18,585 nt of DNA from Sandaracinaceae bacterium (GTDB lineage Bacteria > Myxococcota_A > Polyangia > Polyangiales > Sandaracinaceae), in contig JBGAQA010000015.1 of assembly GCA_044220955.1 (NCBI GenBank), positions 87,194 to 105,778 on the forward strand, read 5' to 3'. A model generated the notes under the pieces. That model ran no database searches. It was not told the DNA's origin and saw only the letters and a list, made by a program, of their open reading frames with translations. A program made the translations under genes and the position numbers. Shown in pieces: positions 3,955-14,381 of this stretch (position 1 is its first letter; the number at the start of each line of letters is the position of its first letter).

Positions 3955-4923
3955 GTGCGAGCCAATCCACGGATCTCGATTGTGGCTTCCATCGGGGCCC
4001 GGCGCCCGCCAACATCTCGCGTCGTGACACCGGCGGACAGCGTACCGGACATCGCCCACGTCGAGCGCATCGGCGCGCCCGGGGTCGAGCCGCGCCTGCT
4101 GATCGAGGTGCCGCACGGCGCCGATCGGCGCGCGCACTACGACGCGTGGCGCCGCAAGCTCGTGGGGACGCTCCCGCCCGACCTGCACTGCTTCTTCCAC
4201 GTGAACACCGACGTCGGCGCGTGGCAGTACGGGCGGCGCGTCGCCGAGCGCGTCGCCGCGGCGCGAGCGGACGTCGGGGTCCTCCTGGTCCGCTGCCTGG
4301 TGCCGCGGACCTTCATCGACACCAACCGCGTGCCCGACGCGCCCGACGCGCTCGCGAGCGGCGGGATGACGCCGGCCCTCGCGCCCTACGTCGAGGCCGC
4401 CGAGGATCGCGCGCTCTTGATCGGCGCCCACCGCACGTACGTCGACCTCGTCGCGCGCGCCTACGAGCTCGTCTGCGGGGCGGGCGGCTTCGCGCTCAGC
4501 CCGCACACGTACGGGCCGCGCACGCTCGCGATCTCCAAGATCGATCACGAGATCGTCGACGCGCTCCGACGGGCGCACGAGCCCGCCGCGATCGAGGCGG
4601 CGCCGCTGCGCCCCGAGCTCGACCTGATCACGCGACGCCCGGACGGCGCGCGCGTCGCGCCCGACGGGATCGTCGAGGAGCTGATCGCCCGATACGCGAA
4701 GATCGGCGTCACCGCGACCGAGTCGGCGACCTACAAGATGAGCGAGGCGACCCAGAGCTGGCGCTGGCAGCTCGGCTACCCGCAGCAGGTGCTCTGCCTC
4801 GAGGTGCGGCGCGACCTCCTGGTCGAGACCTGGACGCCCTTCGAGGAGCAGACGGTGAAGGAGACCGCGGCGGACCGCTTCGCGGGGCCCCTCGCCGAGG
4901 CGATCTCGGCGCGGCTGCCATGA
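3955..4923 (+). CDS. N-formylglutamate amidohydrolase-like (Zn-peptidase fold) protein; true start possibly GTG at 4024
   Basis: Motif order LLIEVPHG, HVNTDVGA, PRTFIDTNR, PHTY, RPELDL, LCLEVRRDL resembles the FGase family pattern (PH.G, TD, R..ID.NR, H, EVRRDL). Strong GC3 bias from about 4024. Stop overlaps the rsmI start (ATGA). Confidence 0.65.
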   Translation: MRANPRISIVASIGARRPPTSRVVTPADSVPDIAHVERIGAPGVEPRLLIEVPHGADRRAHYDAWRRKLVGTLPPDLHCFFHVNTDVGAWQYGRRVAERVAAARADVGVLLVRCLVPRTFIDTNRVPDAPDALASGGMTPALAPYVEAAEDRALLIGAHRTYVDLVARAYELVCGAGGFALSPHTYGPRTLAISKIDHEIVDALRRAHEPAAIEAAPLRPELDLITRRPDGARVAPDGIVEELIARYAKIGVTATESATYKMSEATQSWRWQLGYPQQVLCLEVRRDLLVETWTPFEEQTVKETAADRFAGPLAEAISARLP

Positions 4924-5774
4924 GCGGACGCCTCTACGTCGTCGCCACGCCCATCGGCAACCTCGAGGACATCACGCTGCGCGCGCTGCGCGTCCTGCGC
5001 GAGGCGGACGCGGTGCTGGCCGAGGACACACGGCACACCCGGACGCTGCTGATGCACCATCAGATCGCCACCAAGCTGGTCGCGCTGCACGCACACACCC
5101 CCCCTTCGCGCGTCGCGTCGCTCGCCGCCGAGCTGGGGGCGGGCGCCTCGTTCGCGCTCGTCACGGACGCCGGCACGCCGCTGGTGAGCGACCCCGGCGC
5201 GGAGCTCGTGCGGGCCGCGATCGAGCTCGGCGTGCCGGTGACGCCCATCCCGGGGCCCTCGGCCCCGCTGAGCGCGCTCGTCGCGTCCGGCCTCGCCGCG
5301 CCGACGTTCGAGTTCGTCGGGTTCCTGCCGCGCTCCGGCGGCAAGCGTCGCGATCGGCTGGCGCGGCTCGCGAAGGCACCGGGCGCCGTGGTGCTCTTCG
5401 AGTCCCCCAATCGGCTCGCCTCGACGCTCGCCGACCTCTCGGGCGTCGTCGGCGAGCGCCCGGTCGCGGTCTGCCGGGAGCTCACCAAGCTCCACGAGGA
5501 GATCGCTCGCGGCACGGCCGCGGAGCTGGCCCAGCGCTTCGCGGAGGGCGCGCGCGGCGAGATCACCGTCGTCATCGGCGCACCGGCGAGCGACCCCGAC
5601 GAGGCGGAGCCGCTCGACGAGGAGGCGCTCGACCGCGCCATCGACGCCCTGCGCGAGGAGGGCCTCAGCGCCCGCGACACGGCCGACCGGCTCGCCGCCT
5701 CGACCGGCCACCCGCGGCGCGAGGTCTACCAGCGGGTCCTCGGCCGGCGGGCGGCCTCGGACGACGAAGCCTGA
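4920..5774 (+). CDS. rsmI: 16S rRNA (cytidine1402-2'-O)-methyltransferase
   Basis: MSGRLYVVATPIGNLEDITLRAL, AEDTR, VTDAGTPLVSDPG, PIPGPSA, FVGFLPR, FESPNR, CRELTKLHEE, RGEITVV. ATG at 4920 overlaps the upstream TGA; 284 aa. It is the 3' part of the 1053-aa ORF-track entry. Confidence 0.97.
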   Translation: MSGRLYVVATPIGNLEDITLRALRVLREADAVLAEDTRHTRTLLMHHQIATKLVALHAHTPPSRVASLAAELGAGASFALVTDAGTPLVSDPGAELVRAAIELGVPVTPIPGPSAPLSALVASGLAAPTFEFVGFLPRSGGKRRDRLARLAKAPGAVVLFESPNRLASTLADLSGVVGERPVAVCRELTKLHEEIARGTAAELAQRFAEGARGEITVVIGAPASDPDEAEPLDEEALDRAIDALREEGLSARDTADRLAASTGHPRREVYQRVLGRRAASDDEA

Positions 5775-8888: not shown

Positions 8889-9061
8889 GACCCACCCAAT
8901 TGCGTCGGCTCGCCGCTCCGGCCCCTACCGTCCGCGGGCACGGCTGGAGGCGTCCGCCCGGCGGACGCGACGCAATTGTGTCGGCCCGCCTTCGGCGGGC
9001 ACTCCAGCCTTCCGCCCGCTCCCGTCCGGGTCCTCCGGACGAGCACTCCTGCCTTCTTCAT
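8885..9061 (-). other. Structured intergenic element with a 58-aa bridging mini-ORF (MKKAGVLV...EPTQLGGS)
   Basis: ATG overlaps the ftsW stop (TGATG) behind GGGAGG; TGA overlaps the murG start (ATGA). Contains a four-way-junction fold at 8942-9009 and is homologous to 12805-12882. Confidence 0.7.
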
Positions 9062-10350
9062 CACGAACCTCCCACGGCCTCGCCGACCGCCGCCGGACCT
9101 CTCGGATCCGGCTGCGCGTCGATCGCCCTCGGCGCGCGTGGCTTCTGCGAGACTGCTCTCGACTGCCCCGGTTCTTCGGCCTTGCGCGCCTCGCCGCGAG
9201 GCGAGGGCACGCACTGCCGGGAGACGTTGAGGATCACCCCGATCGCCGCCGCATCGACGACGAGCGCGGAGCCCCCGTAAGAAAGGAACGGAAGCACGAG
9301 CCCCTTGGTGGGCAGAAGGCCCATCGCCACCGCGAGGTTCGTGAAGGCAGAGAGGCCGAGGAGCAGCGTCGCTCCGGCGGCGAGGTAGGTGCCGTACTCG
9401 TCGGGCGCGTTCCACGCGATGCGCAGGCCGCGCACGACCAGGATCGCGAAGGCGCCCGTGACGATCACCATGCCGACGAAGCCGAGCTCCTCGCCGATGA
9501 TCGCGCTGATGAAGTCGGTGTGCGCCTCGGGGAGGAAGAAGAGCTTCTGCCGGCTGTCGCCGATGCCGACGCCGCCGAGCCCTCCGGAGCCGAACGCGAG
9601 CATCGACTCGACGATCTGGTAGCCGCTCCCGGCGCGATGCGCGAACGGATCGAGGAAGGCCTCGATGCGCGCGCGCCGCCAGGGCGAGAGCGCGATCGCC
9701 GCGCCGGCGGCGAGCGCGAGGCCGAGCACCGTGCCCAGGATCGGCCCGAGGCGTGCGCCGGCGAGGAAGAGCATGAGGAACGTGACCAGGCCGATCATCA
9801 CGGCGCTGCCGAGATCCGGCTGGATGATGCAGAAGAGCGCGAAGAGGCTCATCACGATCAGGTGGGGCAGCACGCCGATCTTGAAGGTCCGCATCTGCTC
9901 GGCCTTCTTCGAGAGCGAGTACGCGAGGAACAGGACGATCGTCAGCTTGGCGACCTCGGCGGCCTGGATGTCGACCGGGCCGATACGGATCCACCGCGTC
10001 GCGCCGCCTGCGGTCCGGCCGACGAGCATCGTCGCGACGAAGAGCACGAGCGTCGCGGCCACCGCCGGGTACGTCAGGGGGCGCAGGCGGTGGTAGTCGA
10101 CGCGCGAGACGCCGAGCATCGTGACGAGCCCCACGAGCGCGAACACGGCCTGGCGCACGAGGAACCGGTGCCCGTCGTGGTACGTCTGCGACGCGAACAC
10201 GGCGCTCGCCGAGAACACCATCACGACGCCGAACGCCATCAGCGCCATCGCGAGCCCGACGAGCACCGGATCGACCGGACCGAGCGGCGCCCGCACGGGA
10301 GCCGGCGCCGGCGGCACCGTGGAGCGGCGGAGGAACGACAGGACGCTCAT
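9061..10350 (-). CDS. ftsW: SEDS peptidoglycan polymerase FtsW
   Basis: Own ATG at 10350 with GGAGG 9 nt upstream (10360-10364). Motifs GVVMVFSAS, GGATRWIRIG, QAAEVAKL, QPDLGS, GYQIVES, LPEAHTDFI, GEELG, LPTKGLVLPFLSYGGS; 429 aa. Confidence 0.95.
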   Translation of the reverse strand: MSVLSFLRRSTVPPAPAPVRAPLGPVDPVLVGLAMALMAFGVVMVFSASAVFASQTYHDGHRFLVRQAVFALVGLVTMLGVSRVDYHRLRPLTYPAVAATLVLFVATMLVGRTAGGATRWIRIGPVDIQAAEVAKLTIVLFLAYSLSKKAEQMRTFKIGVLPHLIVMSLFALFCIIQPDLGSAVMIGLVTFLMLFLAGARLGPILGTVLGLALAAGAAIALSPWRRARIEAFLDPFAHRAGSGYQIVESMLAFGSGGLGGVGIGDSRQKLFFLPEAHTDFISAIIGEELGFVGMVIVTGAFAILVVRGLRIAWNAPDEYGTYLAAGATLLLGLSAFTNLAVAMGLLPTKGLVLPFLSYGGSALVVDAAAIGVILNVSRQCVPSPRGEARKAEEPGQSRAVSQKPRAPRAIDAQPDPRGPAAVGEAVGGS

Positions 10351-10379
10351 GACGACGGGCCTCCGGACGATCGGATCAT
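10347..10379 (-). other. 10-aa bridging mini-ORF MIRSSGGPSS between the inferred native murD stop and ftsW
   Basis: ATG ATC CGA TCG TCC GGA GGC CCG TCG TCA TGA, with ATGA overlaps at both ends. Shares TCGTCCGGAGG with the ftsW/murG spacer. Confidence 0.5.
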
Positions 10380-11649
10380 CGCGCACCTCGCGACTCGGGG
10401 AGCGCACGCACCGCGCGCGCGCCTTGGCGGCGGCGTCGTCGATCGTCGTCGCGTCGATCAGGGGGAGCAGAGACCCCTCGAACGCGCGCCGGATGATGGG
10501 CGTGGCCTCGCCGATCAGCACGATCGCGCGCCCGGCCCTCTCCATCCGCTCGCGCATCGGGCCGTACGAGCCCTGCTTGTCCACGCCGCCGGCGACCAGC
10601 ACGACCTTGCCCGGCAGGTCGGCCAGACCATCGAGCGCCGCGCACGTCGCGCCCACGTTCGTGGCCTTGCTGTCGTCGTAGTACGCGACCCCGTCGAGGT
10701 CGCGCACGTGCACCATGCGGTGCGGCAGGCCCGCGAACGCGCGCAGGACCCGGGCGATCACGTCCTTCTCGACGCCGACCAGGCGCGCCGCGAGCGCGGC
10801 CGCACACGCGTTCGACTGGTTGTGCAGGCCCCGGATCTTCAGCTCCGCCACCGGGACGCGCAGGCCCGAGACGCGATCCTCGAGGACCCCGTCGACCACG
10901 CGGACCTCGCCCTCCGCTCCCCAGAACGTGTGGGCGTGGCCGGCGCCGGCCCGCGCGAGCGAGAGGCAGAGCGCGTCGCCCTCGGGGACGAGCGCGTGAT
11001 CGGCCCGCTGCTGCGGATGGAAGATGCGCCCCTTCGCGGCGGCGTAGGACGCGAAGCTGCCGTGACGGTCGAGGTGGTCGTCCGTGACGTTGAGGAGCAG
11101 GGCCACGTTGCAGCGGAGCGACTCGATGTCCTCGAGCTGGAAGCTGGAGAGCTCCGCCACCACGAGGCCGTCGGGCCCCGCGGCCGGCGAGAACGCGGCG
11201 TTGGAGAGCGCATCGCCGAGGTTGCCGCCGACGAAGGTCGGCCGGCCGCTCGCCGCGCACATGTCGCCGACGAGGGTGGTCACGGTGCTCTTGCCGTTCG
11301 AGCCGGTGACGCCGACGAGCGTGCCCCGCAGCGACCAGCTCGCGAGCTCGACCTCGGGGACGACCGGAACGAACCTGGCGCGCGCGGCCTCGACGGCCGG
11401 CAACCGCGGTACGCCGGGGGAGAGCACGACGAGGTCGGCCGCCGTGAAGAGCGCCTCGGGGTGTCCCCCGAGCGAGACGTCGGCCCCGAGCGCGCGCGCC
11501 TCCGCCACCGCGCCGCCGAGCTCGGCCTCGGTCTTCTTGTCGTTGATCGTGACGCGCGCACCCTCGCGGATCGCGAGCCGCGCCGCCGCGAGGCCGCTCT
11601 TGCCCAGGCCCACGATCACCACGCGCGCGTCCTTCAGCGGGATGGCCAT
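10376..11649 (-). CDS. murD: UDP-MurNAc-L-Ala:D-Glu ligase, with a frameshifting deletion near the 3' end (~10412-10422)
   Basis: VVIVGLGKSG, VLSPGVP, GVTGSNGKSTVT, GGNLG, AELSSFQLE, LNVTDDHLDRH, GLHNQSN, GLPHRM, DDSKATNV, AGGVDK. The conserved C-terminal LSPAxxSFD motif is absent, and a plausible native end AVRALPESRGAR* sits in another frame ending at 10376. Confidence 0.92.
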
Positions 11650-11653
11650 GGCG

Positions 11654-12808
11654 TCACCGCAGCTTCAGCGTCGCGAGGCTCGCGAGCGCCAGCATGATGG
11701 AGATGATCCAGAAGCGGACGATGACCTTCGGCTCGGGCCAGCCGCGCTTCTCGAAGTGGTGGTGGATCGGCGCCATCAGGAAGATGCGCTTGCCGAAGAG
11801 CCGGAAGCTCGCCACCTGGGCGATGACGCTGACCCCCTCGACGACGAAGATGCCGCCGAGCAGGATGCTCAGGAGCTCGTTCTTCGTGAGCACGGCGAGC
11901 ATCCCGATGCCGCCGCCGAGCGCGAGCGCGCCCACGTCGCCCATGAAGACCTGCGCGGGGTAGGTGTTGTACCAGAGGAATCCGAACCCGGCGCCGAGGA
12001 TGGCGCCGCAGAACACGCTGAGCTCCGAGGCACTGCCGAGGGCCGGGATGCGCAGGTACTCGGCGACCGACGCGCCGAAGAGCACGAGGCCCGTCATGTA
12101 CGCGAGCACCGCGTACACGCCGGCGTTGATCATCACGGGGCCGATCGCGAGGCCGTCGAGCCCGTCGGTGAGGTTCACGCAGTTGCTCGTCGCGACGAGC
12201 ACGATCGAGGCGAAGATCACGTAGAGCCAGGGGGGCAGCACGGCGGCGTAGTGCGCCGGCGTCAGGACGTCCGGGTAGTGCTCGGCGCGGAACGCGACGA
12301 AGGGGACGGCGAGGTGGTTCCGCAGCGCGATCCAGTCGTGGCCGAGGCCCGCCTGCCCGTACCAGAGGTAGCCGCAGACCGCGAACGCCACGCTGAACTG
12401 GATCAGGAGCTTGTAGCGACCGGCGAGCCCGCCCGTGTCCTTCTTGGTGATCTTGAGGGCGTCGTCGACATAGCCGACGACCCCGTAGGCGACCGTGACG
12501 AGCAGCGTCAGCCACACGCTCGTCGACGTCGGGTCGGCCCACGCGACGGTCGAGACGACGAGCGCGAAGAGGATCAGGGCCCCGCCCATCGTGGGCGTGC
12601 CCGCCTTGCTGAGGTGCGACGCGGGCCCCTCCTTGCGCACGACCTGTCCGACCTGCCGCCGCTGCAGTCGCCGGATGAACCAGGGATAGAGGCCGAACGT
12701 CACGGCCATGGCCGTGAGCGTCGCGGCGAGCACACGGAACGGCACGTAGCGCAGCACGTTGAGGAAGTTCAGGCGCGGCGCGTACGGGTAGAGGAGCGCG
12801 TAGATCAT
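11654..12808 (-). CDS. mraY: Phospho-MurNAc-pentapeptide translocase
   Basis: KAGTPTMGG, GYVDDALK, SNCVNLTDGLDGLA, FLWYNTYPAQVFMGDVG, MAPIHHHFE, EPKVIVRFWII, TLKLR. Confidence 0.98.
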   Translation of the reverse strand: MIYALLYPYAPRLNFLNVLRYVPFRVLAATLTAMAVTFGLYPWFIRRLQRRQVGQVVRKEGPASHLSKAGTPTMGGALILFALVVSTVAWADPTSTSVWLTLLVTVAYGVVGYVDDALKITKKDTGGLAGRYKLLIQFSVAFAVCGYLWYGQAGLGHDWIALRNHLAVPFVAFRAEHYPDVLTPAHYAAVLPPWLYVIFASIVLVATSNCVNLTDGLDGLAIGPVMINAGVYAVLAYMTGLVLFGASVAEYLRIPALGSASELSVFCGAILGAGFGFLWYNTYPAQVFMGDVGALALGGGIGMLAVLTKNELLSILLGGIFVVEGVSVIAQVASFRLFGKRIFLMAPIHHHFEKRGWPEPKVIVRFWIISIMLALASLATLKLR

Positions 12809-12906
12809 CGGCTCGCCCCTCCGCGCCCTTCCGTCCGCGCGCGCCGCGCGCTCCCATCCGGACGCAAAGGAGCGAGCTCTCCCGTCGTGAGCCGCGCGTC
12901 GATCAT
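12805..12906 (-). other. Intergenic repeat element with a 33-aa bridging mini-ORF (MIDARLTTGELAPLRPDGSARRARTEGRGGASR)
   Basis: ATG 2 nt after the murF TAG, behind AAAGAGG; TGA overlaps the mraY ATG. Flanked by a 14/15-nt direct repeat. 31/37 nt identical to part of the ftsW/murG spacer. Confidence 0.7.
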
Positions 12907-12908
12907 CG

Positions 12909-14381
12909 CTACGCGGCCTCTTTCCGGGCCACGAGGGCCTCGACCACGCGCTCCATGCGCATGCCGCGCGAGCCCTTCACCACGACGACGTCGCCCTCGA
13001 TGAGGAAGCGGTCGACCTCGCAGACGGCGTCCATCGGATCGTCGACCTCGATCACGAGGTCGGCGCCCATCTCGCGCGCCTCTTGCGCGGCCGCGCGCAT
13101 GCGCCGGCCGCAGGCGACGAAGAGCGAGACGCCCGCGAGCGCGACGTGCTCGCCGACCAGCGCGTGCAGCTCGGTCTCGAGCGCGCCGAGCTCGAGCATG
13201 TCGCCCAGCACCGCCACCAGCCGCCCGTTGGTGGTGCGCGCGATCTCGGTCGCGGTGTCGATCGCGTTGATCACCGAGCGCGGCGAGGCGTTGTACGAGT
13301 CGTCGACGATCACCGTGCCCCCCGGGCCCGCGAGCGGACAGAGCCGACCCGGCTCGGGACGCAGGAACCTCAGCGCCTCGGCGGCCGGCTCGAGACCGTC
13401 CAGCCCCCGCGTCGCGAGGGCCAGCGCGAGCGCAGCGCCCGCGTTCTTGGCGGCGCCGGCCCCGAGCAGCGCGAGCTCGACCACGAGGTCGGAGGCGCGC
13501 CCGTCGATCCGGTAGGTGACGCGCTGGCCCGAGGCCGCGGCGCTTCGCGACACCAGCCGCACGGCGGCGTCGACGTCTCGCCCGAACCCGAGCTTTCGGC
13601 GCGCGCGCGAGCCCGCCACGTAGGGCCCGAGGCGCGGCTCGTCGGCGTCGTAGATCGCCGTGCCCGTCTCGGGGAGCGAGGTCAGCAGCGCCCCCTTCTC
13701 CCGCGCGACGCCGTCGATCGAGCCGACTCCCTCGGTGTGGACCGCCGCGACGCTCGTCACGATCCCCACGTCCGGCCGCGCGATCGCGCAGAGCTTCGCG
13801 ATCTCGCCGGGCACGTTCATGCCCATCTCCACGACCGCGAAGGTCGTGCGCGCCGGATCGATCGTGAGCAGCGTGCGCGGTACGCCGACGAGGTTGTTGA
13901 GGTTGCCCTCGGTGGCGACGACGACGTCGCGCCACGGCGGGGCGCGGAGGACCGCAGCGCACATCTCCTTGGTGCTCGTCTTGCCGACCGATCCGGTGAT
14001 CCCCACCAGGGCGGCGAGACCGCCGCCCCCAGGGCCGCCCGGGCGCGCCCGCTCGCGCGCGAACGTGCCGAGGCGTCCGAGCGCGGCGAGCGTGTCCTCG
14101 ACGAGGACCACGCCGACGGCCTGCGGCACCGCGACCTCGCGGCTCACCACGACGATGCCCGCCCCGCGCACCACGACGTCGGCGACGAACTCGTGCGCAT
14201 CGCGCTTCTCGCCGACGAGCGCGACGAACACGTCGCCGACGTACACCTCGCGCGAGTCCGTGCAGACGCAGCGAGGAGCGGCGCTCGAACGCCCCGCCTG
14301 CACGACGGTGCCACCGACGATGCCCGCGAGCGCCTCGGCGTCGCGGAGAGAGACGCTGTTTCTCGGCAGTGGTGTCGCCAT
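12909..14381 (-). CDS. murF: UDP-MurNAc-tripeptide:D-Ala-D-Ala ligase
   Basis: ATG at 14381 overlaps the murE stop (TGATG). Motifs TDSREV, DVFVALVGEKRDAHEF, GITGSVGKTSTKE, GNLNNLVGVP, VEMGMN, HTEG, DDSYNASP, LGDMLELG, VKGSRGMRME; 490 aa. Confidence 0.97.
   Translation of the reverse strand: MATPLPRNSVSLRDAEALAGIVGGTVVQAGRSSAAPRCVCTDSREVYVGDVFVALVGEKRDAHEFVADVVVRGAGIVVVSREVAVPQAVGVVLVEDTLAALGRLGTFARERARPGGPGGGGLAALVGITGSVGKTSTKEMCAAVLRAPPWRDVVVATEGNLNNLVGVPRTLLTIDPARTTFAVVEMGMNVPGEIAKLCAIARPDVGIVTSVAAVHTEGVGSIDGVAREKGALLTSLPETGTAIYDADEPRLGPYVAGSRARRKLGFGRDVDAAVRLVSRSAAASGQRVTYRIDGRASDLVVELALLGAGAAKNAGAALALALATRGLDGLEPAAEALRFLRPEPGRLCPLAGPGGTVIVDDSYNASPRSVINAIDTATEIARTTNGRLVAVLGDMLELGALETELHALVGEHVALAGVSLFVACGRRMRAAAQEAREMGADLVIEVDDPMDAVCEVDRFLIEGDVVVVKGSRGMRMERVVEALVARKEAA

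Follow-up and report, generated by a model that had tools for sequence, protein, structure and literature searches.

A lineage-restricted, REP-like hairpin repeat at the murF/mraY junction of a Sandaracinaceae dcw cluster, with a predicted 33-codon frame across the insertion

We analysed a window of 18,585 nucleotides, the whole stretch of DNA under study, from a Sandaracinaceae genome of 7.5 Mb in 301 contigs with 72.5% GC (G000). The minus strand of the window carries a dcw cluster comprising ftsI, murE, murF, mraY, murD, ftsW and murG. Pfam is the basis for murF, mraY, murD/ftsW and murG, and ftsI and murE were named by sequence and gene order. An RsmI-like methyltransferase gene (4920-5774) and the 3' part of a Lon protease gene (1-1913), both named by sequence, adjoin the cluster. 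In a capped sample of mraY genes, the best named MraY relatives come from delta-proteobacterial, Polyangiaceae and Myxococcales assemblies, at 62-69%, consistent with a myxobacterium. Long pieces identical to the window occur in bioreactor and activated-sludge runs. Among the matches listed there was no RNA run containing the window sequence, and a plasmid collection gave no match to it. The features at the murF/mraY and ftsW/murG junctions are the following, in window coordinates.

12909-14381, minus strand: murF (Mur ligase middle and C domains, Pfam), with its stop codon TAG at 12911-12909
12894-12908, minus strand: upstream copy of a 14/15 direct repeat, a duplicate mraY start region that holds the mini-ORF ATG
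12882-12893, minus strand: 5' leader of the type A repeat, a short segment that separates the duplicated start from the core, placed by a flank position profile
12809-12881, minus strand: conserved hairpin core (73 nt) of the type A repeat, murF/mraY copy, defined by a covarying fold
12805-12906, minus strand: predicted mini-ORF of 33 codons, from 2 nt after the murF stop to a TGA that overlaps the mraY ATG (ATGA)
12796-12810, minus strand: downstream copy of that direct repeat (14/15), which is the real start region of mraY
11654-12808, minus strand: mraY (PF00953, PF10555)
8906-9048, minus strand: second type A copy, at the ftsW/murG junction, interrupted by type B, which is nested in it
8940-9009, no strand assigned: type B, two short REP-like hairpins forming an inverted dimer centred on a CAATTG palindrome, in the type A apical loop
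8885-9064, minus strand: predicted relay frame of 59 codons; it overlaps the ftsW stop as GTGA at one end and the murG start as ATGA at the other

A first-pass annotation of the sequence had proposed that the two spacers share a pair of arms, and the alignments agree. The first arms (12806-12842 and 8903-8939) match at 31 of 37 positions and the second arms (12844-12882 and 9012-9049) at 29 of 39 aligned columns. The local alignment of the two spacers scored 43, whereas the maximum in 2000 dinucleotide shuffles was 39. A motif described as occurring twice in each spacer was found as GGAYGGRA at both junctions, and the GGAGG of mraY is indeed provided by the element, 9 nt upstream of the ATG. 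The 33-codon frame that bridges murF and mraY was absent from that first reading; it has no Pfam match. At the Rfam gathering score there were no matches in the window, and seven weak matches to miRNA models fell far under the cut-off.

The repeat at the murF/mraY junction, here called type A, belongs to a dispersed family. A profile search with nhmmer gave 83 matches at E ≤ 0.01 in G000 and none in the reversed genome; at murF/mraY the match covers 12802-12891. There are 59 full-length copies in G000, with a core of 73 nt and a unit of ~90 nt. BLAST matches in relatives, with at most 40 candidates scored per genome, numbered 61 in G005, 57 in G002, 41 in G004, 30 in G001 and 1 in G003. A model of the repeat (R1) matched 33 of 33 scored candidates in each of G007 and G124, two complete genomes of a second genus. 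Type A is present in many copies in six relatives (G001, G002, G004, G005, G007 and G124). Across the order the model matches 5 of 121 genomes and across the class 2 of 151, both counts including G000; outside these six relatives and G000 itself, the repeat occurs in single copies only.

The purine-rich strand of type A forms one long hairpin, in which four stems are separated by purine-rich 3x3 internal loops. These loops are mostly GGA opposite GGA, GAA or GTA (290 of the 327 copies parsed). Loops of the GGA/GGA kind can form stacked sheared G.A pairs, which is possible on the purine-rich strand only. In the murF/mraY copy, one side of an internal loop now reads TTT and is able to pair. The hairpin had 92.3% of 506 cells paired, compared with 29-45% in slid controls. 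Two-sided changes were found in 7 of 23 pairs and none of 500 shuffles scored as high, in a covariation test that favours the structure because the fold was drawn from the tested sequences.

Pooling the genomes gave 238 type A clusters, 20 of which lie inside called genes. At four loci (L137, L144, L149 and L325) the repeat is read through in frame as a C- or N-terminal extension of an ordinary protein. At another (L207, G002:C222, positions 1338-1417) a copy sits within a Y1 transposase gene that has inverted repeats of ~240 nt at its sides, and two other copies of this gene in G002 are without the insertion.

The first-pass annotation had described the murF/mraY spacer as a core-less version of the ftsW/murG element, in which a ~70-nt cloverleaf lies between the arms. 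The polarity proved to be the reverse. The cloverleaf is the type B element, whose YGTC tags face the central CAATTG and which is found at 31 loci in G000, free-standing at most of them; relatives have 41 (G004), 12 (G005) and 7 (G002) matches. We found type B nested in the type A apical loop at ftsW/murG, at C266 (both in G000) and at the mraY site of G002. Since type B is a separate element nested in type A, the ftsW/murG copy is the derived one, and the arms-only form, with its 59 full copies, is the common one. The genome-wide search for arm-only and arm-plus-core copies recovered both forms, in the proportion of 59 arms-only to 2 nested copies in G000. The idea of a modular family is supported. 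One half of type B shares the type A ends, so type A can be described as the same monomer with a long structured loop. A type B copy in G004 (C215:2532-2597; L035 / L511) lies in frame ~35 nt upstream of the ftsW stop, in the part that encodes the C-terminal tail, with the ftsW/murG link intact.

The proposed insertion into the murF/mraY junction was examined by comparison with empty sites, which relatives do possess. The junction was compared at 29 loci of relatives: 21 have a 4-nt overlap (RTGA), 1 a 1-nt overlap and 2 a 6-nt gap, 3 lack a murF match, and 2 are filled. G001, G003 and G004 are among the genomes with the empty -4 overlap. Because 21 of the 29 loci overlap by RTGA, the murF/mraY spacer is an insertion, and the claim that it is flanked by a duplication of the mraY start is likewise supported. 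Removal of 98 bp does yield TAG-CG-ATG, as had been pointed out, but this is not the state of the relatives, in which stop and start overlap by 4 nt. No 98-nt skip that would mark precise excision was seen among the joints listed for four runs, whose contigs drop rare variants.

Both filled relatives carry more elaborate alleles. In G005 the junction holds three tandem type A units, the second and third of which begin with the first 12 nt of mraY; the frames across them have 30, 31 and 31 codons, each RTGA-linked. In G002 (L007) a stub of the element's 3' end is followed by a duplicated mraY start and then by a type A copy with a nested type B. The first 11 codons of mraY are gone there, replaced by the nested element, and there is no obvious in-frame start, so that this allele is either a lethal-looking deletion or a misassembly. 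In the species tree G002 and G005 are sisters and G000 is unplaced among G003 and G004; a grouping of the three filled genomes was not rejected (AU p=0.056). As G000, G002 and G005 are also filled at a parC/parE-like junction that is empty in G003 and G004, a single old insertion followed by losses and a series of repeated insertions are equally possible. At most of the orthologous type A sites that we compared, one genome has the repeat and others lack it. For the exact ends we found 34 filled/empty pairs, most of them too diverged at ~70-90% identity.

We consider it reasonably likely that the spacer is the standard form of a lineage-restricted REP-like hairpin repeat, seated in the murF/mraY overlap with a duplicated mraY start, and that it is tolerated there through the 33-codon frame acting as a relay. 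The repeat would have entered the overlapping stop and start of murF and mraY along with a duplicate of the mraY start. The duplicated start would open the 33-codon frame, and with the stop of this frame lying on the real mraY start, ribosomes would be relayed across the hairpin; the insertion is likely tolerated because of this arrangement. This reading draws on dispersed copies, a covarying hairpin, the placement after stop codons, empty RTGA sites, arrays, nesting and a bridging frame at both dcw sites. Translational coupling is reported to work best at spacings of -4 to +3 (PMC12548453), and the gap from murF to the mini-ORF, at +2, falls within this range.

Several other junctions have comparable frames. 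For ftsW/murG, 7 of 11 relatives have a -4 overlap and G000 has the 59-codon frame. The parC/parE-like junction has a -4 overlap in G003 and G004 and relay frames of three lengths (37, 42 and 98 codons) in G000, G002 and G005; at the sites of G002 and G005 the automatically chosen downstream start is wrong, so they are labelled "broken", also in the unbiased test below, and the printed sequence has the overlap. Between mreC and mreD a relay frame occurs in G000 with type A and in G004 with a different-looking repeat. The latter insert (L413) has 184 nt, is a different palindromic repeat with CCCTCTCCC-type arms, and is crossed by a frame of 63 codons. Some element-free junctions (L414, L417 and L035) have the form GTGA-A-RTGA, a two-codon relay, which suggests that tiny overlap duplications are common in the genus.

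Relay frames were found at 9 of 20 junctions in a first set and at 4 of 9 loci collected after the hypothesis was fixed, compared with 26 of 226 element-free gaps, although sites common to kin are not independent in such counts. After orthologous sites were merged the figure was 11 of 27 (Fisher p=0.0004). The start is uncertain at one of the junctions scored (L328). At sites with RTGA on both sides, our tally was 11 relays, 3 fusions and 2 broken junctions (relay versus broken, p=0.011), and the background phases were 28/22/28. As an unbiased test we took 198 clusters in relatives, 13 of which lie at junctions that are coupled and empty in G000. Their outcome (2 relays, 5 fusions, 2 upstream read-throughs, 2 broken, 2 without a start) is the random-phase expectation. 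There is also no bias towards a length of 3n+2 in array units elsewhere (15/8/7 of 30).

These last results bear on a reading that we think possible but doubtful, in which the repeat truly inserted and the bridging frame is a coincidence. The mraY gene would start afresh from the GGAGG in the 3' arm, and the RTGA duplication would give a mini-ORF with a 1-in-3 chance. The unbiased set, with 2 of 13 relays and 4 of 13 junctions left without coupling, speaks for it, as does the position of the GGAGG 9 nt before the ATG. Chance relays do occur, both in the background and at C235, where the relay is attributed to chance because the junction is uncoupled in five relatives. Opening the mraY start region costs 20.7 kcal/mol when the element is present and 18.9-23.6 kcal/mol in three empty alleles, and because the first value lies within that range the hairpin does not measurably bury the mraY start more; occlusion of the Shine-Dalgarno sequence as the reason for a relay is therefore unsupported. 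Against coincidence stands the excess of 11 relay over 2 broken outcomes among the double-RTGA sites. In addition, the relay is kept over three lengths at the parC/parE-like junction and by two different repeats at mreC/mreD, and relay phase is also seen in the three G005 units and in both dcw insertions of the window. Taken with the unbiased set, these observations make it probable that the relay acts as a survival filter where essential genes adjoin, and is not a design feature of the repeat.

The position of type A relative to genes was assessed with gene ends and starts from a purpose-built dicodon gene caller, which recovers the dcw genes. In G000, 26 of the 59 copies begin on the TGA of a co-oriented gene. 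Among the 145 of the 238 pooled clusters with an upstream gene pointing in, 111 start 5-13 nt after the co-oriented stop, whereas at the opposite end 20 of 115 convergent stops are as close. Of the 111 close stops, 37 read TGATC, versus 12% of TGA stops genome-wide, a ~3-fold enrichment. At the orthologous junctions compared, the stop beside the repeat is the host gene's own. There is no replichore bias, with 10 of 24 and 13 of 28 copies on the leading strand when the origin was set at dnaA, and lagging-strand targeting was rejected on these figures. A TC dinucleotide beside the repeat, considered as a guide or cleavage site, was inconsistent between sets relative to control windows (53/92 vs 37, 52/70 vs 23, 28/47 vs 29 and 15/23 vs 15). 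The plain reading of the placement is a preference for TGA-containing sites combined with the removal of insertions within genes, and the placement may be linked to translation termination.

The same data raise the prospect, unlikely in our judgement, that type A is kept as an RNA device, a post-stop hairpin that protects mRNA 3' ends or acts on terminating ribosomes, and that its position reflects selection and not a DNA target. The tight spacing of 5-13 nt from the stop would fit, as would an orientation that follows the gene and not the replichore, and so would the covariation. According to PMC3733652, REP-type repeats lie for the most part downstream of coding regions and are plausibly transcribed. 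Folding as RNA favours the sense strand in 310 of 327 copies, but folding as DNA favours the same strand too, in 311 of 327. Most of the orthologous sites compared have the repeat in one genome and not in others, and tandem arrays and nesting point to DNA-level copying. A role as RNA can nevertheless hold together with the insertion and relay reading preferred here.

The 14/15 direct repeat at 12796-12810 and 12894-12908 exists as the first-pass annotation had given it, and a 14/15 match over a 73-nt gap was seen at 39 of 20,000 random genome positions (0.2%). Flanking repeats with ≥10 matches occur at 14 of 92 single type A copies, compared with 1.5% in swapped-flank controls, and repeats with ≥12 matches at 3 of 92, the murF/mraY copy included. 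The repeats differ in offset and in length, which reaches 17, and a long one is missing from most copies. Tandem type A arrays are frequent and their linkers derive from the flank. At two sites, L089 and the G002 mraY site, a stub from the 3' end of the element itself precedes the left repeat. A classical target-site duplication is not supported by these observations, since only a minority of copies have long flanking repeats, which are of no constant length or offset and frequently accompany tandem arrays or a stub. The 14/15 repeat looks like a by-product of insertion or of tandem amplification, not a fixed target-site duplication.

A strict MITE model, with a modular element moved by a DDE transposase, a 15-bp target-site duplication and a murF/mraY copy that lost its core, is on these grounds very improbable. 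The rarity of the 14/15 match by chance and the excess of flanking repeats over controls would suit it, and type B does have terminal inverted repeats. Type A, however, has none besides its own hairpin, the variable repeats and the stubs that precede the left repeat do not fit a fixed duplication, and arms-only copies exceed nested ones by 59 to 2.

That the spacer is a repeat assembly artefact of a metagenome-assembled genome, a thought invited by the 301 contigs and by the faulty-looking murD/ftsW join nearby, is refuted and has next to no chance of being right, because a contig of run X2 spans 12680-12956 with zero differences, pieces from runs X1 and X20 agree, and two other species have the repeat at the same junction. 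The join itself concerns murD and ftsW, which form a single frame of 862 codons (9061-11649) with a break near 10418. MurD of the window is without the last ~40 residues found in three relatives, and the join is probably an assembly fault, as contig pieces of X1 and X9 stop fitting at 10418-10421.

We searched for a mobilising enzyme among Y1 (PF01797) families. None of 18 Y1 loci is flanked by type A or B, and in the two complete carrier genomes, G007 and G124, there is no match to PF01797 and none to a local Y1 family (L211-type); within the limits of this search no dedicated transposase for type A or B was found. In G005 the L211 locus has a 28-nt inverted repeat (335-362 and 2032-2059) around a Y1 gene and one ORF, and it shares the central palindrome of type B. 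Within the order, 22 of 121 genomes carry this Y1 family, and almost none of these has the repeat; the family was rejected as a partner because it is missing in the complete carriers and present in many non-carriers. The two Y1 genes of G000 were also rejected as partners, since their inverted repeats are different ones or are lacking. A Y1 gene of G000 lies between 70-nt inverted repeats (L001, 1134-1203 and 1915-1984) that start with a GGGGTCAC-type motif, an arrangement that resembles the TIRtrons described in PMC3733652.

Returning to the insertion and relay reading, type A would be a non-autonomous mobile DNA that prefers TGA-containing sites, as the TGATC enrichment suggests. The long direct repeat would stem from copying during insertion, or from an array that took in flanking DNA as it was amplified and later collapsed, and not from a fixed staggered cut. 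At coupled junctions of needed genes, only lengths that keep the coupling, by a 3n+2 relay or an in-frame fusion, would tend to survive. The best guess for the mobiliser, given the tagged hairpin and the dimer anatomy, is a HUH-type single-strand nuclease acting in trans. A bolder proposal, to which we give little credence, is an undescribed class of small mobile DNA in myxobacteria, directed to translation stop signals (5-13 nt, sense strand, independent of replication), with a strand-specific hairpin of three stacked GGA/GGA loops, a non-Y1 enzyme and self-nesting dimers, which colonises essential operons through copied stop/start relays.

These sites provide a natural series of alleles at single junctions of essential operons: empty, with one unit, with three units, nested, and with a different repeat. 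Together with two complete carrier genomes, the series makes two ideas testable, namely coupling as a filter of insert length modulo 3 and the cause of the tight placement after stops. For annotation, frames of 30-60 codons across these repeats are probably not protein genes. The main points of interest are the tight anchoring to stop codons and the missing mobilising enzyme (among Y1 families).

We compared type A with published families of small repeats. A literature search, with most subscription papers and supplements outside its reach, found no published description of this family. REP, BIME and REPIN elements with their RAYT (TnpA-REP) transposases are described as having inverted doublets, head-to-tail amplification that includes flanking DNA, and covarying palindromes (PMC2817692, PMC6006769), all of which resemble what we see, whereas type A and B are without the GTAG tag and no flanked Y1 gene was found among 18 loci. 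Short ORFs across the attC hairpins of integrons are reported to relieve a translation block of the next gene by termination-reinitiation (PMC8876359). The likeness is that a short frame runs across a hairpin; no integron or integrase was seen around the repeat, which lies in core housekeeping operons.

MIRUs (mycobacterial interspersed repetitive units) are described as 40-100 bp long, with about 40-50 dispersed copies, tandem variants and insertion at start codons (PMC12548453, PMC3184786). They belong to a different phylum and were likened to type A by their description. The likeness covers size range, tens of copies, a GC-rich internal inverted repeat, filled and empty sites and, in part, short direct repeats; type A, with its 73-nt core, ~90-nt unit, 59 full copies and 30 array units, corresponds in size and copy number. 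The MIRU reading frame has ends that overlap the neighbouring genes at -4, a feature found at both window sites (on the murF side +2, not -4) and at 13 of 29 testable junctions, not at most copies. The tetranucleotide direct repeat of MIRU type corresponds to RTGA on both sides at coupled sites, and is otherwise variable, often longer or absent. MIRUs as described lie at start codons, whereas type A lies behind stops (111 of 145), and the two coincide only at RTGA overlaps. Most type A copies lie away from coupled junctions, and no 3n+2 length is built into the unit, which sets the family apart from MIRUs. The MIRU relay idea itself appears to rest on one 1997 study (PMC12548453, PMC3184786).

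CGTC-tagged REPs (PMC3733652) are similar in their CGTC/TGTC tag beside a GC-rich stem-loop, in their dimers and clusters and in their position downstream of genes. Halves of type B have this tag on their pyrimidine strand, as do many of the type A copies of G000 and G004; it is absent from the murF/mraY copy, whose tail is the mraY start. The CGTC REPs are stated to have no known mobilising enzyme and no dedicated transposase (PMC3733652), and none was found for type A or B among Y1 families. The main text of that paper does not mention Sorangium, Myxococcus, Anaeromyxobacter or Haliangium. The norm described there is an 8-9 bp stem starting with AT pairs, a 4-5 nt loop and a CCA tail, mostly in head-head dimers with the tags outside. 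In contrast, type A and B stems start with G/C, carry a CACTCC-like tail and no CCA, and have in type A a 60-nt hairpin for a loop; the type B tags lie inside the dimer around CAATTG, the TT type that is rare in CGTC families (PMC3733652). By analogy, then, type A resembles a MIRU in how it works at coupled junctions and a CGTC-type REP in its architecture, and the features tested do not place it in either family. As it lacks defining features of each, we file it as a variant of the small non-autonomous palindromic repeats.
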